Source: Bacteroidota bacterium
Lineage (GTDB): Bacteria > Bacteroidota > Bacteroidia > Cytophagales > ES-bin-26
Reading direction: 5' to 3'
DNA: 30,610 bases
Assembly: GCA_040385915.1 (NCBI GenBank)
Contig: JAZKGK010000153.1
Span: 12,466 to 43,075 of the forward strand
Part shown: positions 5,753 through 30,610 of the stretch, piece after piece
How positions within the stretch are numbered: the stretch's first letter is position 1
Layout of the letters: every line of letters begins with the position of its first letter
Translations under genes and position numbers: made by a program
The notes under the pieces: model-generated
What the model saw: the letters and a program-made list of their open reading frames with translations, nothing else
Told to the model about the DNA's origin: nothing
The model's database searches: none

Positions 5753-5994
5753 TAGGATTAGTGGGAGGTAATTTGAGTACCACACCCTTTCTAATAATGG
5801 CCTAGCGTATAAACAATAGCACCTTATTTCATTGGTATGTCTACGCCACAAAAATAGCTTTAACATTTGGAAAAAAACCGCATTTTATATTGTTATTTAG
5901 GGTTTCAGGGTATGAATCTTGCGGCGATATATTTTACTTTAATAGCTCTTTCAGGGGTTGGCAGGAGTAGAGACATGCAATACTTTTTCAATTG

Positions 5995-10110: not shown

Positions 10111-10185
10111 GCTTTACCGCTATTCCACCCGAAACAATCACTAAGTTATACGTATAAGCTAAAGTTCACCAATTGTTAGCTGCGT

Positions 10186-11367
10186 ATGAATCAGTTGTCA
10201 AGTGTAAACTCCCTTTTTCGCTCTTTCTGGCAAGCCGGTTTTGAGTGTGCCGATCACCTCAATTACCATGGCGATCGAGTAGATTTACTGAAGGAAACCG
10301 CCCACGATGTCTTAATAGACGAAGATTATGCTGCCCTGGCTCCCTTCCAAATTCAAACCGTGCGCGAAGGCATTCGTTGGAATCGGGTAGAAAAGAAGCC
10401 CGGCCTCTATGATTGGACGGACGTAATAGAAAGAATAGAAGCGGGGCAAAGAAATGGCATTCAACAGCTTTGGGACATTTGTCACTTTGGTTTTCCCGAC
10501 GATTTGTCTCCTCTGCAGCCACACTTTTCTGAGCGCCTCGCTTCTGTAAGTCAGGCGTTTGTCCAGCTCTGGCATTCGCTTTCCGACGAGCCCCTGATTG
10601 TAACACCTATCAATGAAATAAGCTTTTTGTCGTGGCTGGGTGGAGAAGTGAAAGGCACGGTTCCTTATACCACCGAACGAGGATTTGAGCTCAAGTACGA
10701 ACTGGTAAAAGCGGCCATTGCATCCATAGAAGCCATTTGGCAGGTGGATCCCCAGGTAAGGATTTTGCATACCGAGCCCTTGGTCTATATTCTTCCGGTG
10801 GGTGACGAGCCAGAAATGATAGCACAAGCAGCGCAAGCCAATGAAATACAGTTTCAAACCCTGGATATGCTGTCAGGCAGCATGTGCCCAGAGCTAGGAG
10901 GGCGCAAGGAATACCTCGACCTGATTGGCCTGAACTACTATTTTGATAATCAATGGGAACACGAACGTACCCGCATTCGATGGGAAGAGCCCCGCGATCG
11001 GCGCTGGAAACCTTTATCGGTGCTTTTGCAGGAAGTATATAGCCGATATAACCGCCCGATGACTATTTCTGAAACCAGCCATTTGGGCGTTGGGCGCGGA
11101 GATTGGATTTTGGAAATAGCCAGGGAATGCTGCCAAGCAATCGAAAATGGAGTCGATCTCCAAGGCATTTGCCTATATCCTATCCTCGACCGACCCGATT
11201 GGGATAACCTTAACCTGTACCATAACTCCGGCCTGTGGGATTTGGAACACCATCCAAATAAGCCTCCCAAGCGGGTTTTGTGTGAACACTATGCCAAAGA
11301 TCTACTCAAGGCCCAGCAAACACTAAACACCCACATGCCCCTCAAAGCCAGGTGGATCTATGCTTGA
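10186..11367 (+). CDS. Glycoside hydrolase family 1-like (clan GH-A) protein, cytoplasmic; paralog a
   Basis: 393 aa. GH1-like signatures: acid/base-like 'IVTPINEISF' (T-x-NEP analogue), nucleophile-like 'MTISETSHLG' (ITENG analogue), and 'DICHFGFPDDL' resembling GH1 'HWDLPQ.L'. No signal peptide. About 55% identical to the next gene. Confidence 0.6.
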   Translation: MNQLSSVNSLFRSFWQAGFECADHLNYHGDRVDLLKETAHDVLIDEDYAALAPFQIQTVREGIRWNRVEKKPGLYDWTDVIERIEAGQRNGIQQLWDICHFGFPDDLSPLQPHFSERLASVSQAFVQLWHSLSDEPLIVTPINEISFLSWLGGEVKGTVPYTTERGFELKYELVKAAIASIEAIWQVDPQVRILHTEPLVYILPVGDEPEMIAQAAQANEIQFQTLDMLSGSMCPELGGRKEYLDLIGLNYYFDNQWEHERTRIRWEEPRDRRWKPLSVLLQEVYSRYNRPMTISETSHLGVGRGDWILEIARECCQAIENGVDLQGICLYPILDRPDWDNLNLYHNSGLWDLEHHPNKPPKRVLCEHYAKDLLKAQQTLNTHMPLKARWIYA

Positions 11368-11629
11368 CAGTCATCAACTATGTACTCTCATTTCGTATAG
11401 AATGGCTGACTGAGATAAATTCTTGTCATTTATGGGTAAATACTAAATAAACCATTTGCCAGCAAAACATGTCTGTCATAGCATAGTCGTTCTTTTTCAG
11501 TATTTTATTTAAACCAATTGAATTATATATACAAACATTTTAGACAAAACTTACTTGATCTAAACCAACCAAATAACGTCCGATTTAGAATGATCTATAA
11601 GGGTATTTTTGTTGCACTATTTTTATCAC

Positions 11630-12826
11630 ATGAACACAGAAACTATTTTTAAAACGAATCCTTTGTTTCGTTCTTTTTGGCAGGCTGGTTTTGAGTGCGC
11701 CGATCATTTAAACTGCCACGGTGATCGGGTTAATATTTTGAAAGAAACATTTCACGATGTATTGGCCGAAGAGGATTATGCTCGTTTAATTCCACTAAAT
11801 CTGCTCACTGTTCGAGAGGGAATTTGCTGGAATACAGTAGAGAAAATACCAGGACAATACGATTGGAGCGAAGTAATTAACCGGATTGAGGCTGGCAAAG
11901 AAGCTGGTATACAACAAATCTGGGACATCTGTCATTTTGGGTATCCCGACGATTTATCGCCTTTCCAGCCCCGCTTTGCGGAACGCTTTGCCAATATATG
12001 CCGGGCTTTTGCCGTACTGTGGCGTTCGCTCAGTGATGAAACGCTGATTGTGACCCCCATTAATGAAATCAGCTTTATTTCCTGGCTCGGCGGTGAGATC
12101 AAGCAGACTGTACCCTATACACAAGGCCTGGGTTTTGAAGTTAAACGCGCGTTGGTTAAAGCCTGCATCGCGGGCATGGAAGCCATATGGGAAGTAGACC
12201 CGGAAGCCCGATTTTTGCATACCGAGCCCTTGATATACGTGTTGCCGGGCGACGACCAGCCCCAAACCCTGGCCGAAGTAGCAGCCATTAATGAAGACCG
12301 TTTCCAGGCGCTCGACATGCTAGCCGGAAAACTGCATCCAGAACTGGGCGGCAAGCCTGAATACCTGGATATTATTGGCCTCGATTTTTACTACAATAAT
12401 CAGTGGATACATTTTGGCTCGCGCGTGCAATGGGAAGCCCCCCAAGATCCCCGCTGGATACCGTTATCGCAGTTGCTGAAGCAAGTCTACGATCGGTATA
12501 ACCGTCCTTTGGTGTTGGCGGAAACCAGCCATCTGGGCATTGGCCGGGGAGAATGGGTGAGGGAAATAGGGCAGGAATGTCAGCAAGCCCTGGCAGAAGG
12601 AGTGGATTTATGGGGTGTTTGTCTGTATCCCATCATCGACCGTCCCGACTGGGATAACCTGAGCCACTACCACAATTCAGGTCTGTGGGACGTAATCCTT
12701 AAGCCTGGGTTTCCTTCGGAGCGGGTTTTATGTGAACATTACGCCAAAGATTTGCTGATGGCTCAACTCCAATTGAGTCCATACATACCTCATAGACAGT
12801 CTATTGAAGTTTCGAAATTAGCATAG
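11630..12826 (+). CDS. Glycoside hydrolase family 1-like (clan GH-A) protein, cytoplasmic; paralog b (tandem duplicate of 10186..11367)
   Basis: Same motif set as paralog a (FRSFWQAGFECADHLN, TPINEISF, LAETSHLG). Start taken at ATG 11630 (MNTETIF…), which aligns with the paralog-a N-terminus. The track's 11609 is a TTG. A TATTTTTG motif (11604..11611) just upstream resembles the Bacteroidetes -7 promoter element. Confidence 0.6.
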   Translation: MNTETIFKTNPLFRSFWQAGFECADHLNCHGDRVNILKETFHDVLAEEDYARLIPLNLLTVREGICWNTVEKIPGQYDWSEVINRIEAGKEAGIQQIWDICHFGYPDDLSPFQPRFAERFANICRAFAVLWRSLSDETLIVTPINEISFISWLGGEIKQTVPYTQGLGFEVKRALVKACIAGMEAIWEVDPEARFLHTEPLIYVLPGDDQPQTLAEVAAINEDRFQALDMLAGKLHPELGGKPEYLDIIGLDFYYNNQWIHFGSRVQWEAPQDPRWIPLSQLLKQVYDRYNRPLVLAETSHLGIGRGEWVREIGQECQQALAEGVDLWGVCLYPIIDRPDWDNLSHYHNSGLWDVILKPGFPSERVLCEHYAKDLLMAQLQLSPYIPHRQSIEVSKLA

Positions 12827-14288
12827 CAGCATCTCCCGCTATTGCTGGAATATCTATTGTCAGGGTTTCTGACGTGAGCAGTGAGAAAGGCTCCAAGGTA
12901 TGGCGTTCGCCGGTCAGCGTATTCCAGACCACCACCGAGTACAGTCCCGCTTCCATGGCTGAAACCCTGATTTTTGCCTTTTGGGGCAATAGGTTAGGGT
13001 GAAGCAAGCCTTCGGCAGTAAGGTCTTTTGTTTGAAGAAACCAAAGAATGACCTGCTTTTCGTTTCCGCAAGCAAATCCCTTAAAAAAGCTAGGAGAAAT
13101 TTTCACCTGCGCATCCAGATTTGTTCTTGAAAAAAATTGCCAATCCACGTCTTGAATAAATGCAGCCAATACCTTTTGGGCTTGACGCATACCCTGCGTC
13201 AGTACGTGTGGATGGCGATAAGGCCAGCGAAAGCCTCCACCCGCGCCACCTGCGGCCAGATGCGCCCATTGCATATGTCGGAAATACTGATCGTCAAAAC
13301 ACGCTGGCAAAGTGCCCTGTTTTCGTCGGAAACTGCGGTCGGGGCCGTGCTCGCTGTCCAGAAATGGCCGGCCGTCCCGAATGTGGCGCAAGGCCTCTCG
13401 CGTGAGTACGCCCGTTTGCAAAGCTGGCTTTACCGTATTGGAAGGCAGCCGAATGGAGGCATCATAGAAGTGGACACTGGCAAAGTCCAGGAGTGGATGC
13501 CGAAAAATGACTTCGCTTAGGTCGGGGTGCTTCTTTAATACGGGACTGTATACCGATACCGTTTGCAAGTGCGCCCGTCCGTGGATATCCATTTCCAGTT
13601 CGCGCAGATAGCGGCTCATCTCGCTCACCCAGGCATGCAAAGTCTGGCTATCGTGACCCGCATGTGCCGGGTCGATTTCATTCCACAAGTCCCAGGCAAA
13701 AAGCGCCCCGCTACTGCCCCAGCGCCGCGTGGCAAAAGCAAGCCGGGCTTTGATCGCCGATAAAGTTGCCGGACAAGTAAGCCATTGGGAAGGACGTTGG
13801 CAAAAACCGCCATTCGCCCGGTTGTATGGATGTTTAGCCCAGCGTTTCCGCATCCAGAAGGTGTCATACGGCGTAAGCAGGATACGCAAGCCGTGCTTGG
13901 CACAAAGCGCGAATACATCGTCCCACAGCATAATAATATTCGGCTGAAAAACACCTGCCGGACGTTCTAAATAGCGGTTTTCGGTATGGCAGTACTCCAA
14001 CATCAGCCGTAAACAAGTAACGCCGTGAGAGACCAGCGTTGAAAAATACTGATCGACACTGTTGACATCTTTCCGGCGAAAAAGCCCCGCCAAGTCCGGC
14101 CAGGTAATGGCATCGTTCTGGCCAATGGGCGTCCAATTCTCTCCTTGGTCCGTCAAAAAGTAAGGCGCATGCGGGGCTACCTGTATCCAGGGCAAGGAAA
14201 AGGGATGAATAGGTACTGCTTGACTCTTGGATTGATTGGAAGGAAATAGGCGATTAGGGAACGTTACTCTATCACTGCTGTCTGCCAT
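12801..14288 (-). CDS. Glycoside hydrolase family 5-like (clan GH-A) hydrolase, cytoplasmic
   Basis: 'AWDLWNEID' matches the GH5 acid/base NEP strand and 'FLDSEHGP' is a candidate nucleophile strand. About 495 aa, no signal peptide. ATG start at 14288 (MADSSDRV) is preferred over the TTG at 14318. The 3' end overlaps the convergent paralog-b gene by 26 bp. Confidence 0.55.
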   Translation of the reverse strand: MADSSDRVTFPNRLFPSNQSKSQAVPIHPFSLPWIQVAPHAPYFLTDQGENWTPIGQNDAITWPDLAGLFRRKDVNSVDQYFSTLVSHGVTCLRLMLEYCHTENRYLERPAGVFQPNIIMLWDDVFALCAKHGLRILLTPYDTFWMRKRWAKHPYNRANGGFCQRPSQWLTCPATLSAIKARLAFATRRWGSSGALFAWDLWNEIDPAHAGHDSQTLHAWVSEMSRYLRELEMDIHGRAHLQTVSVYSPVLKKHPDLSEVIFRHPLLDFASVHFYDASIRLPSNTVKPALQTGVLTREALRHIRDGRPFLDSEHGPDRSFRRKQGTLPACFDDQYFRHMQWAHLAAGGAGGGFRWPYRHPHVLTQGMRQAQKVLAAFIQDVDWQFFSRTNLDAQVKISPSFFKGFACGNEKQVILWFLQTKDLTAEGLLHPNLLPQKAKIRVSAMEAGLYSVVVWNTLTGERHTLEPFSLLTSETLTIDIPAIAGDAAMLISKLQ

Positions 14289-14315
14289 GGCTCGTTCGAT
14301 TGCCGGATTGTTAAA

Positions 14316-14376
14316 CAAAAGAAAGGAAAAAGCCCCAATACTACCTTACAGTAGGGAGGCTTTTTCCTTTCTTTTG
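14316..14376 (-). promoter_or_regulatory. Hairpin between the third GH1-like gene and the GH5-like gene (19-bp perfect stem, 23-nt loop)
   Basis: caaaagaaaggaaaaagcc (14316..14334) pairs with ggctttttcctttcttttg (14358..14376). Lies 28 bp upstream of the preferred GH5 start codon and between two co-directional genes. Confidence 0.4.
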
Positions 14377-14386
14377 TCAAATTTGC

Positions 14387-15613
14387 TTATACGAACGTGG
14401 GTTTTGGCAGATGATTAATCGAAAATACATGGCCAGCCTCTTTCATTTCAGCCGTATATTGAGCTATAATGTTGTGATAAGCTTCTCCTACCGGTCTTAT
14501 TTTACGGTCAATGTCGTATAGTCCAAACGCATTGACGTTTCCATTGTCTTCCCGCAAAGCCGTATCCCAATCTATCTGGTCAATAAGGCTGTACCAAGTG
14601 AAACCAACCACGGGTATACCCTCTTGTTTGAGCCGCAACAATTCATTCCATTGTTGATGTAGCCAAGCCACCGCTTTTTCAGCACCAATATTGGTTTCCG
14701 TATACATCACCGGAACGCGGTAACGATCGTAGTATTGGCGCGCTACCTGGTAAAATCCCAGGCCGTTAAAAAAGTCGCTGGTGCGTCCGTCTGGGTGCAC
14801 CATGTGTTCATTATGGGCATAGTAATCGGCTCCAATGACCCATTTACCCCGGCAAGGATGGTTACGAAACCAAGCATATTCATCTTTGGTCATTCCGTGG
14901 TGCAGCAAATAATCCTGCATCAGTTGACTGGAAGGATAACCGCAGGTCAGATCATAGGGCAAGAACCGCTTTTGGTTGAGGAAATCGGCTTTTTCATGGC
15001 AGGCGTCAGTCTCGGTATGGAAATATTCCCAGCCTTCACTTTGGATAAATACGGCCTCTGGTTGTATACTCAAAATGGCGTCCATCGCCAGCAAATTGGC
15101 TTTGCACATGTGCTTTAGGGCTGTAACAAAGCCATGTTCATCGGCAAGTCGCTCGTTCCACCAGCCGAACTGTGCCGAAAAAATGGCACAAATATTTATT
15201 TCATTCACAGGTGTATACAAGCGTAAATCTGGGAATCGTTTGGCAAAGGCCAGTGCATATTCCGCGAAATGAGCCGGGAAGTCGGGGTTCTGAAAATTGC
15301 CTAACCAATCAGGGACACCGAAATGGCATAAGTCGACAATGGGCGTAATTCCCATGGCTTTCATGGCAGCAAAAGTTTCATCAGTAAAGTGCCAGTCATA
15401 TTGGCCAGGTGCTAAGTGGGTAGCATAATAAGGCGGCCCGTAGCGTAAAAATTGCATCCCACTTTCCCGAACCAAACGAAAGTCTTCGCGCCAGCGCTGA
15501 TAATGCCCAGCCTTTTCCATTTCGTCTACGCGCTTGGTGGTACCATTCGGCAGCACAATGGTAGGGTAACTATTTTCAATGCCAGTGGCAAACATAAAAG
15601 GTAATTGATTCAT
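14387..15613 (-). CDS. Glycoside hydrolase family 1-like (clan GH-A) protein, cytoplasmic; divergent third paralog
   Basis: 408 aa. N-terminal 'FMFATGIENSYP'. 'GITPIVDLCHFGVPDWL' resembles GH1 'GIEPfVTLyHWDlPqaL'. Acid/base-like 'YTPVNEIN' and nucleophile-like 'MYTETNIG' (ITENG-like). No signal peptide. Confidence 0.6.
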   Translation of the reverse strand: MNQLPFMFATGIENSYPTIVLPNGTTKRVDEMEKAGHYQRWREDFRLVRESGMQFLRYGPPYYATHLAPGQYDWHFTDETFAAMKAMGITPIVDLCHFGVPDWLGNFQNPDFPAHFAEYALAFAKRFPDLRLYTPVNEINICAIFSAQFGWWNERLADEHGFVTALKHMCKANLLAMDAILSIQPEAVFIQSEGWEYFHTETDACHEKADFLNQKRFLPYDLTCGYPSSQLMQDYLLHHGMTKDEYAWFRNHPCRGKWVIGADYYAHNEHMVHPDGRTSDFFNGLGFYQVARQYYDRYRVPVMYTETNIGAEKAVAWLHQQWNELLRLKQEGIPVVGFTWYSLIDQIDWDTALREDNGNVNAFGLYDIDRKIRPVGEAYHNIIAQYTAEMKEAGHVFSINHLPKPTFV

Positions 15614-21960: not shown

Positions 21961-22629
21961 ATGAAAGAATTACTCGATTGGGCATTTATTTCCATTAATT
22001 TTCCGCTCACCCTCCTATTACTGGTTATTCTGTTGTACTGGCTTACCGTAATTGTCGGCCTGATCGATTTCAGCTTTCTTCATTTCGACATAGATGCGGA
22101 CATTCATATAGATGGTCATGCGCATGTGCATCTGGAGAAAAACATCCATGTAGATGTAAAAGCGAAACAAAGTCTCTTCACTTCTCTGCTTAATTTTTTC
22201 AATTTGGGAAAAGTGCCTTTCATGATTTTCCTTAGCTTCATGGTTTTATTTATGTGGAGCGGTAGTATTCTAGGGAATTATTACCTCCATAATCAATCGG
22301 TCGGTTTTGCCCTGTTGCTGCTCATTCCCAACTTTATTAGCAGCCTGTTTCTGACCAAGTTTCTTACGTTTCCCCTCATTCACGTTTTTTCTGATGGCAA
22401 AAATGAATTTGAAGCCAATAGTGATTTGATTGGCAAGCCTTGTACACTCCTGCTCTCGGCCACGGAACAGAAAGTGGGTCAGGCAGAAGTGCTATCCGCT
22501 ACGGGTGCGCCGCTGTTACTGACAGTGAAAACCACCACCGGACACCAACTCAAACGAGGCGAAAGAGGGCTGGTGATTGATTATGACCCAGTCACGCACA
22601 CCTACTTAATAGAACCATTTGACCAATAA
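21961..22629 (+). CDS. NfeD/YqiJ-like membrane protein (N-terminal TM helices plus C-terminal NfeD-type OB-fold)
   Basis: 222 aa with three or four hydrophobic segments. The C-terminus 'GKPCTLLLSATEQKVGQAEVLSATGAPLLLTVKTTTGHQLKRGERGLVIDYDP' has the NfeD short-form beta-barrel pattern. It is immediately upstream of a flotillin gene, as in yqiJ-yqiK and nfeD-floT pairs. A His-rich stretch (HIDGHAHVHLEKNIHVD) is present. Confidence 0.65.
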   Translation: MKELLDWAFISINFPLTLLLLVILLYWLTVIVGLIDFSFLHFDIDADIHIDGHAHVHLEKNIHVDVKAKQSLFTSLLNFFNLGKVPFMIFLSFMVLFMWSGSILGNYYLHNQSVGFALLLLIPNFISSLFLTKFLTFPLIHVFSDGKNEFEANSDLIGKPCTLLLSATEQKVGQAEVLSATGAPLLLTVKTTTGHQLKRGERGLVIDYDPVTHTYLIEPFDQ

Positions 22630-22630
22630 A

Positions 22631-22687
22631 GTAAAGAGTTGAAAGTTGAGAGTAAAAAGCTTGAACTCTCAACTTTCAACTCTTTAC
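22631..22687 (+). promoter_or_regulatory. 23-bp perfect hairpin (11-nt loop) between the nfeD-like and flotillin genes
   Basis: gtaaagagttgaaagttgagagt (22631..22653) pairs with actctcaactttcaactctttac (22665..22687). Starts 2 nt after the upstream stop codon and ends 20 nt before the flotillin ATG. Followed by the U-rich tttcaacttaattt. Confidence 0.6.
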
Positions 22688-22707
22688 TTTCAACTTAATT
22701 TAAAACT

Positions 22708-24861
22708 ATGTTTGCAAATTTTATCATTGTAGTGGGCGTTATCGCTGCCGTTTTTTTATTAGGTTTTGTAGCCCTTATTGTCAGTTGCTATAAAAAGGTA
22801 AGCCAGGGAAAGGCTTTGGTCCGCACCGGTTTTGGTGATCTCACCGTTCGCTTCAATGCCATGTTCGTTTTTCCGGTACTTCACCAGCTGGAAATTATGG
22901 ACATCTCGCTCAAAACAGTGGAAATCAGCCGGACAGGGAAAGATGGTCTGATCTGTAAAGACAATATGCGGGCGGATATTAAAGTCGCCTTTTTTGTGCG
23001 GGTAAACAAAACGAAGGAAGATGTCGAGAAAGTAGCCCAGGCCATTGGTTGTGCCCGCGCTTCCGATTACGCCTTGCTACGCGAACTGTTTGAAGCCAAG
23101 TTTTCGGAAGGCTTGAAAACCATCGGCAAGCGGTTTGACTTCGTAGACTTATACGATTCGCGCGAAAAATTTAAGCTGGAAATTTTGGAAGCCATTGGAC
23201 GCGACCTCAATGGCTATGTACTAGACGATTGTGCCATCGATTACTTGGAACAAACGCCCATCACTTTCCTGAGCGAAGATAATATCCTGGATTCGGAAGG
23301 TATCAAGAAGATTGCCGACCTTACTGCCCAACAGAAGATCAAAGCCAACCAAATCCGGCGCGACGAGCAAAAGGTGATTACCAAGCAAAATGTGGAAGCC
23401 CGCGAAGCCATTCTGGAACTGGAACGCCAATTAGCTGAAAAAGAAGAAAAGCAGAAACGCGAAGTATTAGCCATCAAGTCCCGCGAAGAAGCTGAAACGA
23501 AGAAGATTGCTTCAGAAGAATTTATGAAGTCGGAACAGGCGCGCATCCGCACGGAAGAAGAATTGCAGGTGGCTGAGCAAAACAAGCAGCGGCAGGTAAT
23601 TGTGGCGACCAAGGCCAAGGAAAAAACCGAAGCGGTGGAAATTGAACGCGTGCAAAAGGAGCGTCAGTTGGAGGTAAATGAGCGCGAACGAATCGTAGAA
23701 CTGGCCCGGATTGAGAAAGACAAAGCCATTGAAGAAGAGAAAAAGAATATCCAGGATGTAATTAGAGAACGGGTAATTGTAGAAAAGGCCGTAGTAGTTG
23801 AAGAAGAAAAGATAAAAGACACGCGTGCCTTTGCCCTGGCCGAACGCGACAAGGCGGTCGCAATTAAGAATGCAGAAAAAGTAGCGGAAGAAGCGCTGGT
23901 ACAGCAAATCAAATCAGCAGAAGCCAGCAAACGCTCGGCTGAACTATACGCAGAGCAGTCAATTATGCAAGCGAATGCCGACCGCCAGGTGGCGGAGAAA
24001 TCTTCGGAAGCCAAAAAGATTATGGCGGCAGCCAAGACAATCGAAGAAGCGGCTACTGGTCTGGCCGAAGCACAAGTGATGGAAGCCAAGTCGCTTGCCC
24101 ACGAAAAACAGGGAACGGTTGAAGCCAATATTATTGAGAAGAAGGCCATTGCCGATGCCAAGGGAATCGAAGCCAAAGCATCTGCCCTCGAAAAGCAGGG
24201 ATTGACCGAAGCCAATGTACTGGAACAAAAGGGAAGCGCCGAAGCAAGAGTCATTTCTATAAAGGCTGCTTCTGTAAAAGAGCAAGGTCTGGCTGAAGCA
24301 GATGTTATGGAGAAAAAGGGTCTGGCCGAAGCCTTGCGTATCGAAGCTAGAGCCAACGCCACCAAACAGCTCGATGGCGTAGGCAAAGAGCACGAAGAGT
24401 TCAAGCTCCGTCTACAACAAGTTACGGACATCGAACTGGCCAAAATTAATATCCAGAAAGACATTGCCAATGCCCAAGCCAGTGTAATTAGCGAAGCTCT
24501 CAAAGCCTCTAACATCAACATTGTGGGTGGCGAAACGATGTTCTACGAAAATATTATGGGAGCCATCACCAAGGGCAAATCCATTGATAGCTTCGTGAGC
24601 AATAGCCAGGTAATCCAAGGCGTACAACACGCCCTGATGAATGGTAACGGCACCGACGGCTCTATGGGTGATAAAATCAAAAGGCTGGTGAATCAATTCG
24701 GGATCTCTTCCGAAGACGTGAAGAACCTGACGATCTCTGCCCTGCTCTTCAAAATGCTCAACCTGACTTCAGACGATGGCGTAAAAGGCCTGTTGAATGA
24801 CTTGATGCATACAGCTAAGAAGGATGGCCTTGGAGATAAAAAGGCTGGGACGGTGTTGTAG
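22708..24861 (+). CDS. Flotillin-like SPFH/Band-7 domain protein (YqiK/FloT type) with long coiled-coil and C-terminal EA-type 11-residue repeats
   Basis: 717 aa. N-terminal TM helix (IIVVGVIAAVFLLGFVALIV) followed by an SPFH domain. A long Glu/Lys/Ala-rich coiled coil follows. Repeated units (…EKKGLAEA…/…EQKGSAEA…/…EKQGLTEA…) are typical of flotillin. Confidence 0.85.
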   Translation: MFANFIIVVGVIAAVFLLGFVALIVSCYKKVSQGKALVRTGFGDLTVRFNAMFVFPVLHQLEIMDISLKTVEISRTGKDGLICKDNMRADIKVAFFVRVNKTKEDVEKVAQAIGCARASDYALLRELFEAKFSEGLKTIGKRFDFVDLYDSREKFKLEILEAIGRDLNGYVLDDCAIDYLEQTPITFLSEDNILDSEGIKKIADLTAQQKIKANQIRRDEQKVITKQNVEAREAILELERQLAEKEEKQKREVLAIKSREEAETKKIASEEFMKSEQARIRTEEELQVAEQNKQRQVIVATKAKEKTEAVEIERVQKERQLEVNERERIVELARIEKDKAIEEEKKNIQDVIRERVIVEKAVVVEEEKIKDTRAFALAERDKAVAIKNAEKVAEEALVQQIKSAEASKRSAELYAEQSIMQANADRQVAEKSSEAKKIMAAAKTIEEAATGLAEAQVMEAKSLAHEKQGTVEANIIEKKAIADAKGIEAKASALEKQGLTEANVLEQKGSAEARVISIKAASVKEQGLAEADVMEKKGLAEALRIEARANATKQLDGVGKEHEEFKLRLQQVTDIELAKINIQKDIANAQASVISEALKASNINIVGGETMFYENIMGAITKGKSIDSFVSNSQVIQGVQHALMNGNGTDGSMGDKIKRLVNQFGISSEDVKNLTISALLFKMLNLTSDDGVKGLLNDLMHTAKKDGLGDKKAGTVL

Positions 24862-24884
24862 ATCCATTCGTCAATCGTATTTAC

Positions 24885-24964
24885 GTAGGGGCAGGCAGAC
24901 GGCGATCCGGCTTGCCCCTGCCCTAAACAACCTGCATAAGGGCAGGGGCAAGCCCTGCCCCTAC
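24885..24964. repeat. GC-rich nested palindromic element between the flotillin and giant-ATPase genes
   Basis: ggcttgcccctgccct (24909..24924) pairs with agggcaggggcaagcc (24939..24954), a 16-bp perfect stem. An outer pair gtaggggcagg (24885..24895) / cctgcccctac (24954..24964) is also present. The motif gggcagggg occurs three times. Confidence 0.6.
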
Positions 24965-24972
24965 CTAATGTA

Positions 24973-27900
24973 TTGCATCTCCTCCCCAACATGACTGAAA
25001 CCACTCCCAATACACCCCAGCTCGAAGCGGGCACGTACGAAATCATTCGGAAGCGGCTCGACAACCACGGCAAAGACCTGCGCGAACGGCTGGACAATCT
25101 GAACCACGCCCGGAAAGACGTGTTCGGTGCCATTGATACCCAGCTGATTGCGAACAATCGCATTGCTACCGAAAATAATTGCATTCCCCGCGATATGATT
25201 CCAGTGGGGAGCCAGTTCATTTTCGGCTACAACGTGCATTTGGGACTAAAATCGGAAGTGGAATTATCGGACGTGTTCAGCGTGTACGAATACGATTCCC
25301 GCGATCATTCCTTCCATCAAAAGCCGCTGGATCTGATCAAAAATGCCGAATTCGAGACGCTGATCAAAGAACTGTACAAATATTATAAATACGCTGCTTT
25401 CCTCAAATTCACTATTATGGGGCCGCACTTGTTTATGGTATTCCAGATTGGCAAGAGCGCAAAAGATATTAAGACGTTCAAATGGCTGATTAAAGAAGAT
25501 AAAAATGCAGCGGCAGGGCAACCTTCCGATAGCTTGCATTACCTCGATAACCGCAGCGACCAGGAATTTAAATTTCCGCCTCAGCACGAGTTTGAGTGGA
25601 AACGAACCCGGCGCGATTACCAACGCACCGGCAAGCACCCCCACATTTCCATTGAAGACAAGATTTTCGTCGAAACCATTGGCGGTGACCTCACCATCAA
25701 AATAGAAGACAATACCGATACGGGCGAAGGGATTTATGCCGAAAAAGTGGAGCAGGCGGAGCAAACGCTCGACGATGCCGAATTTCACTACGCCAATCTC
25801 GGTCATCTTATTTTACTCAAAGTCAGGCCGTATCAGGAGAACAAGAATCGCTACATTATTTATAACGACAAGCTCAAGAAGGCCGTCCGTGTAGATGCGA
25901 TCAAAGATGCCTGCGTATTATTGCCTGACAGCCAGGGCTTGATCTTCTCGAATGGCTACTACCTGCAATCGGGCGAGTTGAAACAGTTTGATGGACTGAC
26001 CAGCGGCACCACGGCATCGACCGCACCACTGGAAAATATGCTGTTTGAAAAGCGCATTATTTCGCCCAATGGAGAGGATTTCCTATACGTGTTTTACAAT
26101 GAAGAAGCGGGCATTTATGTCCTGCTGTCTTATAACCTGATTGAGCAAAAAGTAGAAACGCCCATCGTTTGTAATGGCTTTTCTTTATTTGATAGTGGCG
26201 AACTGGTGTATTTCAAAAGCTCCAACGAGCCGACCAAAAACCACGCCCTGCAAATCTGGCAAACGCCTTACGTTAGTGCTGATTATCAGTCGCCCGTAGA
26301 GCAAAAAAGCTACCTGTACAAGGTTGGCAACAAGGATATTGTACGCGCGATGGCCGAGTGTACAGAAATGGTGAACCTCATTCAGCGTGAAGACGTGTAC
26401 AGCACGCTTTACATGGATCTGGTCAAGAAAACCAATAACATTCTTGATGCTTATTACTGGCTAAACCAAAGCGAAGCCTTCCAGCTCAACCTGCCATTGG
26501 GCGAAATCCGGGCAGCGGCTACCGGCGCTATTGACGAATTTGAGAAGGTAACGAAGGTCAGAAAGAATACCCAGCAGCAAACGGACATCACCGCCAAGAA
26601 GGTGAAGGATTTGCGGGAAAGCGCCAAGAAGGCAGTATTTGAGAATGTTGATCAATACGTTCATTTGCTGGCTAACCTTCGTAGCATGCGCGGCGAAACG
26701 ATCTCGCTCAAAGACCTGCGCTACGCAGATGTACCATTCATTGAAGCGCTCGAAAAATCGTTGGAAGAACAAAGCCAGCTTACTTCCGAAGCTTGCGTCA
26801 GCTATCTGTTGCAGGAAAACTCGCTGGATTTTTACCGCAACAAAGTAGAAACCCAACGGCAGGCAATTGAGACAGTACAAAAAGTGGCCGATGCCACCAT
26901 CATCGAAAAGGACACAGATGCGGCAGGCAAAGAACTGGATTTGCTGATTGAGATTGTCAGCAACCTAAAAATTGCCGATTCCACCCAAACTACGCGCATC
27001 ATCGACAATATTTCGGTTGTGTATGCCAGCCTGAATCAGGTGAAAGCGGGTTTAAAAACGAGGAAAAAGGAACTGTCGAGTGTAGAAGCGGTGGCTGAGT
27101 TTAATGCCCAGGTAAAACTGCTGAGCCAGGCTTTAATCAACTACCTCGACGTATGCGAAACGCCACAAACCTGCGACGAATACCTGACCAAACTAATGGT
27201 TCAGGTAGAAGAACTGGAGGGCAAGTTTGTTGATTTTGATGAATTTACCGAAAAGCTGGCCGATAAACGCGAGGAAATCTACAGCGCTTTCGAAGCCAAA
27301 AAGCTGGCGCTGACCGAAGCCCGCAATAAAAAAGCGACGGGTTTAATGTCGGCTGCCGAACGTATCCTGAAAGGCATTCAGAACCGAGTAGCCAACTTCA
27401 AGACCATCAACGAGATCAATGGCTATTTTGCTGCGGATATGATGATCGAGAAGATTCGCGACTTGGTCAGCCAGCTCGTGGCCATGGATGATACTGTGAA
27501 GGCTGACGATATCCAGAGCCGACTGAAAACCATTCGGGAAGACACCGTGCGGCAGTTAAAAGACCGCCAGGAGTTGTTTGTAGATGGGCAAAACATCATC
27601 CGCCTGGGCAAGCATGCCTTCACAGTCAACGTCCAAAACCTGGATTTGACTATTGTAAATAAGGAAAAGGAGATGTTTTACCACCTCACTGGCACCAATT
27701 TTTTCGAAGTCATTTCCGATCCCGCTTTCCTGGCTACCCGCGAGGTTTGGACCCAGGAACTGGTTTCTGAAAATGGCCAGGTGTACCGCGCCGAATATTT
27801 GGCCTACAAAATTTACCAGGAAACACAAACCCAGCTCCTGGCTCCGGGCATTGTGCATACAGATTTGTTGGCCCACGTACAGCAATTTATGGCCTCGCGC

Positions 27901-29943
27901 TATACTGAAGGCTATGTGAAGGGAATTCACGACCACGACGCCTCCCAGATTCTGCAAGCATTACTCGAACTGCACCAGCAAATCGACTTATTACGCTACG
28001 AGCCAACGGTTCGAACCTGCGCTGCTCTTTATTGGAATCACATCATTGGAGCGGAAGCCAAGGAAAATTTACACCATCGATTGAAAGGCATTGGCATTAT
28101 CCGACAGGCATTTCCCGATACCAAAAGCTTTAGCGATGTATTAGCCGATATCCGCGCTGGCATCGACAATTTTTTGAAAAATACGACACTATTTGATTCA
28201 GCTCTGGCCTCGTATGCCAGCACTTACCTTTTCGAAGAACTGACCAGAGGCGATATTTTCGTCATTAGTCGCTCGGCTGAAACCATTTACCAAGCTTTTC
28301 TGGACTATCTGAAGCAGAATAAACTTCGTGATTTATTCGATTCTTCGCTGGATAAACTGAAGGAAAAACCGCTGGAACGTTTTGAAATGACCCGTCATTG
28401 GGTGAAAGCATTTATCAATCAATCAAAGCAAGACGGAGAAGCCACGTACATACATGAAGCGGCCTTGCTGCTTTTTGAAGGCAATTTCACTCCTCAACGC
28501 GTGGTACAAGCCACTACCCACCGCGAACTGAGCGTCATGTACGGCAGCCACTCAGTCATCGAAAACAAAACCTATCGGTTGGATTACAATGCTTTTGTAC
28601 GGAAAATGGATAGCTTCGATCAAACGGTTGTACCTCGCTATGAGCAATACGTAGCCCTGAAAAAGAGTCTGGCCGAAGCCTTCCGTATTCAGCTCCGCCT
28701 CGACGAATTCAAGCCCCGCGTATTGACTTCGTTCGTTCGTAATAAACTGGTAGACCAACTGTACTTGCCGCTGGTGGGCGATAACCTAGCCAAGCAAATT
28801 GGCGTGGCTGGCGAAGGGAAACGCACCGATTTGATGGGAATGCTGTTGCTGGTTTCGCCGCCGGGTTATGGTAAAACGACCTTGATGGAATACGTAGCCA
28901 ATCGCCTGGGCCTTATTTTCATGAAGATCAATGGCCCGGCCATCGGTCACCGCGTCACTTCGCTCGACCCGGCAGAAGCACCTAATGCCAGCGCTCGAGA
29001 AGAGCTGAACAAACTGAATCTAGCCTTCGAAATGGGCGACAACGTAATGATTTACGTGGATGATATTCAGCACTGTAACCCGGAATTTTTGCAAAAATTC
29101 ATCTCCCTCTGCGATGGGCAACGCAAGATCGAAGGCGTTTATCAGGGCAAAAGCAAGACGTACGACTTACGAGGCAAGAAAGTCTGCGTGGTCATGGCCG
29201 GAAATCCTTATACCGAAAGCGGCGACAAATTCCAGATTCCCGACATGCTCGCCAACCGGGCCGACACGTATAACTTAGGCGATATCATTGGCGACACGGA
29301 AGAAATCTTCAAACTGAGCTACGTGGAGAACTGCCTGACAGCCAACCCGACCTTGAACACGCTGGCAACCCGAAGCCAAAAAGATGTGTATGCACTCGTT
29401 CATCTCGCCGAAAATGGTAGCCGCGAAGGGCTGGAATTTGAGGCCAATTATTCGGCGGAAGAACTCAACGAATACGTCACTGTGTTGAAAAAGCTCATGG
29501 TCGTCCGCGATGTGATTCTGCGCAACAACCTGGAATACATCCGTTCGGCTGCCCAAAGCGACGAATTCCGAACCGAACCGCCTTTCAAGTTGCAAGGCTC
29601 TTACCGCAACATGAATAAGATTGCCGCCCGCGTGGTGCCCATTATGAACGACGCTGAACTGCAAACGCTCATGGTATCGCATTACGAAAACGAAGCCCAA
29701 ACACTAACAACCGGCGCAGAAGCCAACCTGCTCAAATTCAAGGATATTCAGACCCTGCTATCGGAGCCGGAACGCCAACGCTGGGATGAAATCAAAGCTA
29801 CTTTCCGCAAAAACCAGCGCTTCAAAGGCCTCGGCAGTACCGACCAGATGGGACAAATCCTCATGCAGCTCTCCTCCTTCGGCGACGGCCTGAATTCAAT
29901 CAAGGACGTTATTGCGGAGGGACTGAAGAATGGGAAGAAGTAG
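24973..29943 (+). CDS. Giant (1656-aa) protein with C-terminal MoxR/AAA_5-type AAA+ ATPase domain and ~1200-aa helical/coiled-coil N-terminal region of unknown function
   Basis: - Walker A: LLLVSPPGYGKTTLMEY (nt 28858..28881 encode PPGYGKTT).
- Walker B: NVMIYVDDIQH.
- Sensor/Arg-finger region: VVMAGNPYTESGDKFQIPDMLANRADTYNL, resembling MoxR 'ATQNP…LPEAQLDRF'.
- Upstream ~1200 aa: no recognisable domain, many predicted coiled-coil stretches.
- Start may be the internal Met at 24991 (MTETTPNT). Confidence 0.7.
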   Translation: MHLLPNMTETTPNTPQLEAGTYEIIRKRLDNHGKDLRERLDNLNHARKDVFGAIDTQLIANNRIATENNCIPRDMIPVGSQFIFGYNVHLGLKSEVELSDVFSVYEYDSRDHSFHQKPLDLIKNAEFETLIKELYKYYKYAAFLKFTIMGPHLFMVFQIGKSAKDIKTFKWLIKEDKNAAAGQPSDSLHYLDNRSDQEFKFPPQHEFEWKRTRRDYQRTGKHPHISIEDKIFVETIGGDLTIKIEDNTDTGEGIYAEKVEQAEQTLDDAEFHYANLGHLILLKVRPYQENKNRYIIYNDKLKKAVRVDAIKDACVLLPDSQGLIFSNGYYLQSGELKQFDGLTSGTTASTAPLENMLFEKRIISPNGEDFLYVFYNEEAGIYVLLSYNLIEQKVETPIVCNGFSLFDSGELVYFKSSNEPTKNHALQIWQTPYVSADYQSPVEQKSYLYKVGNKDIVRAMAECTEMVNLIQREDVYSTLYMDLVKKTNNILDAYYWLNQSEAFQLNLPLGEIRAAATGAIDEFEKVTKVRKNTQQQTDITAKKVKDLRESAKKAVFENVDQYVHLLANLRSMRGETISLKDLRYADVPFIEALEKSLEEQSQLTSEACVSYLLQENSLDFYRNKVETQRQAIETVQKVADATIIEKDTDAAGKELDLLIEIVSNLKIADSTQTTRIIDNISVVYASLNQVKAGLKTRKKELSSVEAVAEFNAQVKLLSQALINYLDVCETPQTCDEYLTKLMVQVEELEGKFVDFDEFTEKLADKREEIYSAFEAKKLALTEARNKKATGLMSAAERILKGIQNRVANFKTINEINGYFAADMMIEKIRDLVSQLVAMDDTVKADDIQSRLKTIREDTVRQLKDRQELFVDGQNIIRLGKHAFTVNVQNLDLTIVNKEKEMFYHLTGTNFFEVISDPAFLATREVWTQELVSENGQVYRAEYLAYKIYQETQTQLLAPGIVHTDLLAHVQQFMASRYTEGYVKGIHDHDASQILQALLELHQQIDLLRYEPTVRTCAALYWNHIIGAEAKENLHHRLKGIGIIRQAFPDTKSFSDVLADIRAGIDNFLKNTTLFDSALASYASTYLFEELTRGDIFVISRSAETIYQAFLDYLKQNKLRDLFDSSLDKLKEKPLERFEMTRHWVKAFINQSKQDGEATYIHEAALLLFEGNFTPQRVVQATTHRELSVMYGSHSVIENKTYRLDYNAFVRKMDSFDQTVVPRYEQYVALKKSLAEAFRIQLRLDEFKPRVLTSFVRNKLVDQLYLPLVGDNLAKQIGVAGEGKRTDLMGMLLLVSPPGYGKTTLMEYVANRLGLIFMKINGPAIGHRVTSLDPAEAPNASAREELNKLNLAFEMGDNVMIYVDDIQHCNPEFLQKFISLCDGQRKIEGVYQGKSKTYDLRGKKVCVVMAGNPYTESGDKFQIPDMLANRADTYNLGDIIGDTEEIFKLSYVENCLTANPTLNTLATRSQKDVYALVHLAENGSREGLEFEANYSAEELNEYVTVLKKLMVVRDVILRNNLEYIRSAAQSDEFRTEPPFKLQGSYRNMNKIAARVVPIMNDAELQTLMVSHYENEAQTLTTGAEANLLKFKDIQTLLSEPERQRWDEIKATFRKNQRFKGLGSTDQMGQILMQLSSFGDGLNSIKDVIAEGLKNGKK

Positions 29944-29996
29944 GTTGATGGGGTGATATGCTGATGCGATAATGTGCTGATGAGAAAGCCGTGCAA

Positions 29997-30024
29997 GCCG
30001 TTGTTGGTGGAAAACAACAACGGC
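29997..30024 (+). terminator. Hairpin downstream of the giant gene (10-bp perfect stem gccgttgttg / caacaacggc, 8-nt loop)
   Basis: Located 54 nt after the stop codon. Followed by tggaagaataaaaatt, which is not a clean U-tract. Preceded by the direct repeat atgctgatg…gtgctgatg. Confidence 0.4.
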
Positions 30025-30064
30025 TGGAAGAATAAAAATTACTCTGTCTAAACGGCCTATAAAA

Positions 30065-30355
30065 TTGACTCGTCGTAGATTACTTACTGAGTTATTATAC
30101 TCAACTCTGTTATCAATTGTTATTTTTAGCTTGATCAGCTTTTTAAGCTACATATTTACCTTAGAAATCTGGACTACTCCACCTGGCCACTCATTTAAAA
30201 TTGGCTTTCCTTGGCCTTTTTATTATCAAATGTTAGTAGAGAAAGATGTACAACATGGGTCTAACATATTAAATTTCCTCTTGGACATTGTACTTACTTG
30301 GGCAACAACAGTAATAAGTTGGCTTATTATAAAAAGGACCAAGGGCAGGAAATAA
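30065..30355 (+). CDS. Small hypothetical membrane protein (AT-rich ORFan, 2 TM)
   Basis: 96 aa with two strongly hydrophobic segments (LLSIVIFSLISFLSYIF; LLDIVLTWATTVISWLII). Low GC. Immediately followed by copies of the palindromic repeat family. Confidence 0.4.
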   Translation: MTRRRLLTELLYSTLLSIVIFSLISFLSYIFTLEIWTTPPGHSFKIGFPWPFYYQMLVEKDVQHGSNILNFLLDIVLTWATTVISWLIIKRTKGRK

Positions 30356-30360
30356 AGTCC

Positions 30361-30560
30361 CTGGCTGGTATTAGCGTCCGCTAATACCCTAAACTATTGA
30401 GCATCCGCTCAAATTACTACCAACCAATTATAGACATGCAGCCGATTATCCAGATGTCCAAAATAGGATGGTTGATGGGTATTTATCGGGTACATTCAGG
30501 CATTCAAGCGGATGCTTGATTAATCTTGGGTCTTAGCGGACGCTAAGACCAGACAGAGGC
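30361..30560. repeat. Cluster of palindromic repeat-family units, including an inverted, diverged copy (30461..30549) of the ~112-bp element seen at 3997..4109 and 5642..5752
   Basis: - ggtattagcg-tc-cgctaatacc (30367..30388).
- ttgagc-atcc-gctcaa (30397..30412).
- caagc-ggat-gcttg (30505..30518).
- ggtcttagcg-ga-cgctaagacc (30529..30550).
- taggatggttgat… aligns with the reverse complement of …atcaaccatcctac… in copies A and B. Confidence 0.7.
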
Positions 30561-30610
30561 TTACCGAAACGAAAAACTGGCCACAGGGCTACAGTTGTCT
30601 TTTACATATG

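Follow-up and report, generated by a model that had tools for sequence, protein, structure and literature searches.

Introduction

An operon encoding CesT/Tir, PspA, YqiJ/YuaF, a Band-7/flotillin protein and a protein made up of a beta-propeller, a coiled coil and an AAA+ module, in that order, was described by Ravi et al. (mSystems 2024, PMC11237479), and 'abbreviated operons' without PspA were reported there as well, in the main text and in Table S3, with Dokdonia donghaensis as the example. That study was purely computational and no clade was assigned to the ATPase. The locus analysed here occupies positions 21961-29943 of the plus strand of a 30,610-nucleotide (nt) stretch of Bacteroidota DNA (the whole stretch being referred to as the window hereafter) and consists of three co-oriented open reading frames (ORFs), which encode a YqiJ/NfeD-type membrane protein, a YqiK-type flotillin and a 1656-residue cytoplasmic protein ending in an AAA+ module (the giant protein), respectively. 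The same three proteins, with the same order, orientation and domain architectures, are thus found in the window as in the published operon; the window differs from the extended form in that the CesT/Tir-PspA dyad and the divergently transcribed cHTH regulator were not found upstream of yqiJ, where ilvD of the ilv operon is located on the opposite strand instead. A flotillin with a transmembrane segment (residues 6-24) and a Band_7 domain, a multi-transmembrane neighbour of the YqiJ type and a protein with propeller-like, helical and AAA+ parts are all present, and the assignment of the module as an abbreviated form of the PspA-associated flotillin operon is well supported. The system had been regarded as undescribed in an earlier note made from the sequence alone, and this claim is given up here, since the neighbourhood, including its abbreviated form, had already been reported in PMC11237479.

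Several better-known systems resemble parts of this locus. In yqiJ-yqiK of Escherichia coli and yuaF-floT of Bacillus subtilis, a YqiJ/NfeD-type protein is likewise encoded directly upstream of a flotillin composed of a transmembrane segment, an SPFH domain and a coiled coil; in E. coli, however, there is no AAA+ gene at the locus and sib/ibs loci are found downstream. In HflK/C-FtsH, an SPFH cage is built around an AAA+ protease, with FtsH being a membrane-anchored classical AAA protein and HflK/C facing the periplasm. The likeness proposed here is the functional coupling of an SPFH scaffold to an AAA+ machine at the inner membrane; the differences are that the ATPase here is soluble, belongs to another AAA+ branch and carries no detected protease domain, and that the flotillin is cytoplasmic.

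MoxR proteins are compact, single-domain proteins of about 300-350 residues with a canonical DE Walker B motif. Compared with the MoxR chaperones CbbQ, NorQ and RavA, the giant protein is about five times larger, possesses propeller-like and helical domains, has DD instead of DE and is not accompanied by a nearby VWA/MIDAS partner. With Vps4 and ESCRT-III of archaea and eukaryotes it would share the disassembly of a lattice, as proposed here, and in the extended operons the ATPase is genomically tied to a polymer of the ESCRT-III family, namely PspA. According to a 2025 review, a Vps4-like regulator of PspA appears to be absent in bacteria.

The best explanation of the locus, to which we assign a probability of roughly 0.55, is an abbreviated PspA-associated flotillin operon in which the giant protein would use ATP to remodel flotillin and/or PspA assemblies at the inner membrane.

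Results

Conservation of the gene order

One genome per GTDB species was scanned for relatives of the giant protein, by which at least 565 loci were found; 80 of them were fetched, and the counting of gene order was restricted to the 63 loci with at least 3.5 kb of upstream DNA. The genes for YqiJ, flotillin and the giant protein followed one another on the same strand in 57/63 loci, and among the remaining six, three had the flotillin gene only and three had neither (one of these being a broken gene). Loci with the complete trio were distributed over about seven phyla, being derived from Bacteroidota, Planctomycetota, Verrucomicrobiota, Kiritimatiellota, Desulfobacterota, Clostridia and Omnitrophota. 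The identities of the giant proteins and of the flotillins to the respective window proteins co-varied (Spearman 0.50, p 5e-5). The proposal of the earlier note that the three genes form a unit therefore passed the synteny check suggested along with it. When the search was started from the flotillin, the giant gene was located downstream in three of five relatives. The locus with a giant protein of 95% identity (P0004) ends at the edge of its contig and is uninformative on synteny.

By the clustering of all ORFs from the 80 loci, three further recurrent families were recognized directly upstream of yqiJ in 17-21 Bacteroidota loci, namely PspA_IM30 (E 6e-41), CesT_Tir_1 (E 3e-58) and a divergently transcribed HTH_3 regulator. 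PspA and CesT/Tir were encoded directly upstream in 21 Bacteroidota loci, in which the extended operon of Ravi et al. was thereby recovered independently, and a PspA-like gene occupied the same place in one Kiritimatiellota locus. An envelope-stress role, of the kind suggested in the earlier note for the three genes, is made plausible by these neighbours. Apart from YqiJ, flotillin, PspA, CesT/Tir and the HTH regulator, the clustering yielded no conserved neighbour, and no VWA gene was present among the conserved neighbours of the 80 loci or among the window proteins scanned, in agreement with what had been noticed before.

The AAA+ module of the giant protein

The giant protein is encoded by an ORF of 1656 codons at 24973-29943 on the plus strand with a TTG start codon, and an alternative in-frame ATG is located at 24991. 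Its single AAA+ module comprises residues ~1250-1530 (28720..29562, plus strand). Within this module lie the Walker A motif SPPGYGKTT (residues 1295-1303, nt 28855-28881), the Walker B motif MIYVDDIQH (residues 1359-1367, nt 29047-29073), a beta-hairpin predicted by AlphaFold2 before sensor 1 (residues 1385-1398, nt 29116-29181), sensor-1 residue N1411 (within 29191-29208) and a putative arginine finger, R1429 (within 29245-29265), all on the plus strand. K1301 of Walker A, D1363, D1364, N1411 and R1429 were invariant in 18 homologues as well as in 37 homologues, so that the Walker and sensor motifs reported earlier are both present and conserved. The Walker B motif is an invariant DD and not DE; in most AAA+ proteins the catalytic glutamate resides in Walker B.

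The nearest solved folds of the AAA+ module were the MoxR-type proteins CbbQ and NorQ, together with dynein and midasin. A hairpin before sensor 1 is typical of the pre-sensor-1-hairpin superclade, to which MoxR, dynein and midasin belong. Because of the fold ranking and the predicted hairpin before the sensor-1 strand, placement of the module in the MoxR/dynein/midasin (AAA_5) branch is supported at the level of the predicted fold, and the earlier designation as a MoxR/AAA_5-type ATPase is retained in this sense. A sequence search against the PDB ranked p97, Cdc48 and NSF first, with coverage of only about 40 residues around the P-loop; a classical AAA/Vps4-type core, as would follow from this ranking, was rejected by the fold ranking and the predicted pre-sensor-1 hairpin. 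The features of the classical clade (a classical core, an aromatic pore loop 1 and an N-terminal MIT domain) were not found in the giant protein. The MoxR family proper was rejected as well, on the basis of the size of the giant protein, its DD Walker B motif and the missing VWA partner. NCBIfam gave only sub-threshold matches of the P-loop to RuvB and CDC48.

The remainder of the giant protein

No transmembrane segment was detected in the giant protein by the transmembrane scan. Pfam families were assigned to it at residues 35-495 (DUF3686, E 5e-186), 617-700 (DUF7902) and 1291-1414 (AAA/AAA_5). AlphaFold2 models were built from an alignment of 37 sequences (predicted local distance difference test, pLDDT, 84 and 82.5), and the predicted order of parts was an N-terminal helix, a beta-rich region (57-430), helical bundles up to about residue 868, a small beta domain, a second helical domain, the AAA+ module and a helical tail. 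The long N-terminal helix spans residues 19-51. The beta-rich region (25141..26262, plus strand; pLDDT 84) contains about 26 strands, is predicted to be beta-propeller-like and lies within DUF3686 (nt 25075-26457). It is followed by a helical-bundle, spectrin-repeat-like spacer at residues 447-868 (26311..27576, plus strand), in which DUF7902 (nt 26821-27072) is included, and then, at 27595..28479 on the plus strand, by a five-stranded small beta domain (residues 875-913) and a second helical domain (residues 939-1169; pLDDT 82.5), a stretch for which no match was obtained in Pfam.

The region of about 1200 residues before the ATPase had been described earlier as helical or coiled-coil and devoid of any recognizable domain. 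The helical bundles were borne out, but the second half of the description was not: the profile search recommended at the time placed the known families DUF3686 and DUF7902 in this region, and the recommended structure prediction gave a confident beta-rich fold at 57-430.

DUF3686 was represented by 753 relatives among 1.84 billion cluster representatives; nearly all of its full-length relatives were 1600-1900 residues long, with the domain at the N-terminus. The domain thus occurs essentially only in this architecture, which is itself essentially fixed. At least 4870 homologues of the giant protein were found, of which the best 120 were 56-81% identical to it; identity between phyla was 56-58% over about 1650 residues, with a mean column identity of 58%. 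One homologue of 1711 residues (P0114; 56-57% identity) carries the label of a eukaryotic gene model (EukProt g33011.t1), which could reflect contamination or horizontal transfer.

The flotillin and the YqiJ-like protein

The flotillin ORF (717 codons) is located at 22708-24861 on the plus strand. No Pfam match was obtained with the full-length protein, probably owing to bias of the score by its coiled-coil composition; residues 1-231 alone matched SPFH/Band_7 (E 1.4e-12). By BLASTP the protein was 29% identical to E. coli YqiK over 450 residues including the coiled coil (E 1e-36), and an NCBI entry of 100% identity bears the name 'flotillin family protein', all of which agrees with the first identification of this gene as a flotillin. 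A single N-terminal transmembrane segment is followed by the SPFH/Band_7 domain (residues ~30-170) and a coiled coil rich in Glu, Ala and Lys (~200-560). Over 59 syntenic orthologues the SPFH domain was about 70% conserved, and two C-terminal parts, the conserved flotillin region 541-630 and an extra segment 661-690 of the pattern 'fG..SED.KNL.I.ALL.K', were conserved too. Segment 661-690 was not aligned with E. coli YqiK, which is 164 residues shorter than the window flotillin. From its conservation, this C-terminal extension can be put forward as a candidate docking site for the giant ATPase.

The first ORF (222 codons; 21961-22629, plus strand) encodes a protein with three to four hydrophobic or transmembrane segments by the transmembrane scan. 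It matched Pfam YqiJ_N above the cutoff (24.5 bits against a cutoff of 23; E 3.3e-5), and a profile of 24 syntenic YqiJ orthologues was aligned end-to-end with E. coli YqiJ by hhalign (probability 96%, E 2e-9), by which the earlier naming as an NfeD/YqiJ-like protein was substantiated. The OB fold assigned to it in the same breath is weakly indicated: the C-terminal region (~150-222) is beta-rich and lies within the alignment with E. coli YqiJ, and a putative OB fold is hinted at by a weak, non-significant match of residues 145-203 to YuaF 2K14 (E 0.28). Nothing useful was retrieved with either the flotillin or the YqiJ-like protein in PDB sequence searches.

A loop rich in His and Asp, FDIDADIHIDGHAHVHLEKNIHVDV, was observed in the YqiJ-like protein at residues 42-66 (nt 22084-22158), as its first cytoplasmic or periplasmic loop; the equivalent loop in the orthologues is an acidic run of D-x-D-x repeats. 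The composition of this loop suggests that it may bind a metal or another cation.

Intergenic spacers and hairpins

Three hairpins were evaluated by comparison of their folding energies with those of shuffled sequences (z-scores), and all three of the structured elements seen earlier proved to be real. The 78-nt spacer between yqiJ and the flotillin gene contains an AT-rich, perfect 26-bp stem-loop (22628..22690, plus strand; folding free energy -37.6 kcal/mol, z -9.2), which is unusual for this family and was present in none of 209 fetched loci. The spacer between the flotillin and giant genes contains a GC-rich nested palindrome (24886..24965, assigned to neither strand; -57.4 kcal/mol, z -6.8) with two inverted REP-like units (GTAGGGGCAGG...CTTGCCCCTGCCC and GGGCAGGGGCAAGCCCTGCCCCTAC), the unit being of the type GTAGGGGCAGGG-CTTGC-CCCTGCCC in two inverted copies. 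An 11-bp stem-loop without a T-run (inverted repeat I3; 29996..30025, plus strand; z -3.6) is located 53 nt past the stop codon of the giant gene and is possibly the end of the transcription unit. In Rfam none of the three hairpins reached the gathering score, and only sub-threshold, miRNA-like matches to the long perfect stem were obtained.

The exact 22-mer GGGCAGGGGCAAGCCCTGCCCC of the GC-rich palindrome was recovered from at least 120 metagenome contigs (including L088-L167), which came from many samples and habitats. In most of the copies inspected it was directly followed by CTAC; several copies were often present per contig, and it was often located beside sister units GTAGGGGCGACCCTTGCGGTCGCCC, with sister hairpins of the form GTAGGGGC(G/A)ACCCTTGCGGT(C/T)GCCC. 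Elements of the REP class are characterized by a conserved GTAG end, a palindrome and inverted doublets (REPINs), and are mobilised by RAYT Y1 transposases. The palindrome at 24886-24965 is a REP/REPIN-like mobile repeat and is not specific to this operon; its interpretation as an operon-specific attenuator was rejected, because the same 22-mer occurs in at least 120 unrelated contigs. For a REP family, it is striking that the very same 22-mer turns up in such a large number of different samples.

In relatives, the spacer between the flotillin and giant genes was occupied by a RAYT-type Y1 transposase gene, intact in L085 (10217-11171) and degraded in L209 (9166-9770), and in both cases surrounded by multiple copies of another REP palindrome (GGATAGGGTT..AACCCTATCC and its relatives); an AbiEii toxin gene was located there in L022, and DMP19-like and DUF3997 genes in L003. 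This spacer is therefore a hotspot for insertions. The hairpins had been taken in the earlier note as a sign of a tight operon, a reading which is not sustained for a spacer in which the GC-rich element is a mobile repeat and relatives carry RAYT or toxin-antitoxin genes. The gap between yqiJ and the flotillin gene had a median of 15 nt, the two genes usually overlapping or lying no more than 30 nt apart, and the spacer between the flotillin and giant genes was variable with a median of 144 nt. Among 27 short spacers of the latter kind, 14 folded unusually well, and a stem-loop after the flotillin gene may lower the expression of the ATPase relative to that of the scaffold.

Flanks and other features of the window

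The three ORFs were confirmed on the plus strand at the positions first assigned to them. Upstream of yqiJ an ilvD-ilvB-ilvC cluster is located on the opposite strand, separated from yqiJ by an AT-rich spacer of 530 nt; downstream of the giant gene there are a small ORF with two transmembrane segments and repeat-rich DNA. A scan for sigma-70 promoters and terminators gave signals no better than background, and the exact Bacteroidota -7 motif TAnnTTTG was found neither upstream of yqiJ nor in either of the internal spacers.

Two further features were observed elsewhere in the window. An element of about 208 nt at 30355-30562 carries imperfect inverted repeats of 42 nt at its ends (81% complementary), with a separate 10-bp palindrome in each arm (GGTATTAGCG/CGCTAATACC and GGTCTTAGCG/CGCTAAGACC, respectively); it looks like a miniature inverted-repeat transposable element. 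The region 5992-15613 encodes a hybrid two-component regulator of 1372 residues (Reg_prop/Y_Y_Y, HisKA, HATPase, receiver and AraC HTH), followed by three paralogous proteins of about 400 residues (10186-11367, 11609-12826 and, on the minus strand, 14387-15613). Only the minus-strand paralogue gave a Pfam match, a partial one to GH1, which suggests an uncharacterised glycan-utilisation cluster.

Discussion

Proposed mechanism

In the proposed mechanism, the genes for YqiJ and the flotillin would be translationally coupled in most genomes, and the two proteins would form an SPFH scaffold at the inner membrane, on its cytoplasmic side. The giant protein, which is soluble, would dock on this scaffold, or on PspA polymers recruited there, by means of its propeller-like domain and spectrin-like spacer, with the extra C-terminal segment of the flotillin as the candidate docking site. 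It would oligomerise through its single MoxR/dynein-like AAA+ module, and under envelope stress ATP binding and slow hydrolysis would drive the assembly, remodelling or dismantling of a lattice of flotillin and/or PspA, in a manner functionally similar to Vps4 acting on ESCRT-III or to FtsH inside HflK/C cages. Since PspA and CesT/Tir are absent from the window, the module encoded there would act on flotillin alone or with PspA encoded elsewhere in the genome. A narrower form, in which the giant protein is a dedicated ATP-driven assembly/disassembly factor for flotillin (SPFH) cages and/or PspA polymers, that is, a counterpart of Vps4 built on a MoxR/dynein-type core in place of a classical AAA one, is put forward tentatively.

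Several observations weigh against this explanation. Concerning the gene order, the closest homologue of the giant protein among the matches listed (81%; L083, P0001) adjoins SusC/SusD and has no flotillin beside it, the closest non-identical flotillin (87%; L208, P0272) has yqiJ upstream and a terminator-like hairpin with unrelated genes downstream, and the YqiJ-flotillin pair is also missing at L021 and L032. The module thus appears to be split between two loci in the nearest relatives, and the linkage of the trio is strong but not obligatory, because the closest giant protein and the closest flotillin are each encoded without the partner next door. The window itself lacks PspA, and a strong REPIN-like hairpin stands between the flotillin and giant genes, whose co-transcription is putative. 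Concerning the giant protein, the propeller assignment of residues 57-430 is derived from Foldseek matches with low TM-scores. With Asp in place of the Walker B Glu, hydrolysis may be slow or the module may be a switch; the loop that follows strand beta2 (INGPAIGHRVTSLDP) carries no aromatic pore-loop motif, a feature that speaks against substrate threading of the classical kind. Taken together, the DD Walker B motif and the absence of an aromatic pore loop suggest a slow MoxR-/dynein-like remodeller or a switch and not a threading unfoldase. Finally, neither an experimental study of this operon nor data on interaction, localisation, ATPase activity or phenotype of the giant protein were found in the literature.

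Alternative explanations

The giant protein could be a maturation chaperone in the style of MoxR, which would not act on the flotillin lattice itself; the flotillin/YqiJ platform would serve as a workbench for the insertion, folding or activation of another membrane complex, and the propeller would replace the VWA adaptor. This explanation is considered unlikely: no candidate client gene was conserved in the neighbourhood, a VWA or MIDAS partner is missing, no MoxR subfamily resembles the giant protein in size and architecture, and the only recurrent extra neighbours, PspA and CesT/Tir, are themselves lattice-forming or chaperone proteins.

An ATP-regulated membrane skeleton, in which the giant protein is mainly structural, a spectrin-like strut linking flotillin patches, and its AAA+ module is a nucleotide-dependent oligomerisation switch instead of a motor, is favoured by the roughly 420 residues of spectrin- or plectin-like helical repeats, by the DD Walker B motif without an aromatic pore loop and by the very high conservation over the full length (mean column identity 58%, with 56-58% identity between phyla). 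However, both sensor 1 and the putative arginine finger are invariant, as is expected of an active hydrolase, only one AAA module is present and no obvious filament-forming domain was seen, by which the skeleton is made improbable.

Anti-phage or abortive-infection defence by sensing of membrane perturbation, a role also raised in the earlier note, is more doubtful still. Conflict systems commonly include large NTPases with fused propeller or repeat domains, and PspA was first found as a phage-induced protein; toxin-antitoxin or defence-like genes are present in or next to some loci, with AbiEii in L022 and with Uma2 and a STAND NTPase close to L032 and L021. AbiEii and RAYT are, however, insertions into the spacer and not conserved partners; with PADLOC-DB 2.0 no match was obtained for YqiJ or flotillin, and the giant protein gave a weak P-loop match only (mad8, E 0.0016); no giant homologue was found in 2.9 million IMG/VR contigs, and no nuclease, protease, TIR or pore-former effector domain was detected with Pfam. 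The genes are neither patchy nor fast-evolving but show high conservation and vertical coherence, and they are flanked by housekeeping genes, here the ilv operon. The defence role is accordingly not upheld.

That the giant protein is a DNA-repair ATPase with an incidental flotillin neighbour is least credible, and has, like defence, little support: the NCBI name 'DNA repair ATPase' of its homologues, the Pfam description of DUF3686 ('ATPase involved in DNA repair') and weak RuvB_N matches (E 6e-5, below cutoff) speak for it, but the RuvB similarity is confined to the P-loop region (23 bits against cutoffs of 27 and 282), no DNA-binding, nuclease or helicase domain was found with Pfam, the conserved neighbours include no repair gene and are two membrane proteins in 57/63 loci, and nothing that supports the name was retrieved when the literature was searched for DUF3686 (PF12458) and for such an ATPase together with flotillin. 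Neither the domains nor the neighbours nor the literature thus back the name, and it has probably spread as a misannotation.

Significance

The class of operon had been published before, and no new component is added to it by the locus in the window. What is new here is the placement of the ATPase fold near MoxR, dynein and midasin together with the invariant DD Walker B motif, the conserved C-terminal extension of the flotillin as a candidate docking site, the recognition of the flotillin-ATPase spacer as a hotspot for REP/RAYT and toxin-antitoxin insertions, and the evidence that 'DNA repair ATPase' is probably a wrong name. It is still an open question how flotillin scaffolds and PspA/Vipp1 polymers are turned over in bacteria. 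In this module a flotillin is paired with a very strongly conserved ATPase, relatives of which are encoded at no fewer than 565 loci of the species-representative genomes scanned, and in many Bacteroidota the module lies directly after PspA; the trio therefore represents a concrete, testable candidate for the missing Vps4-like activity.

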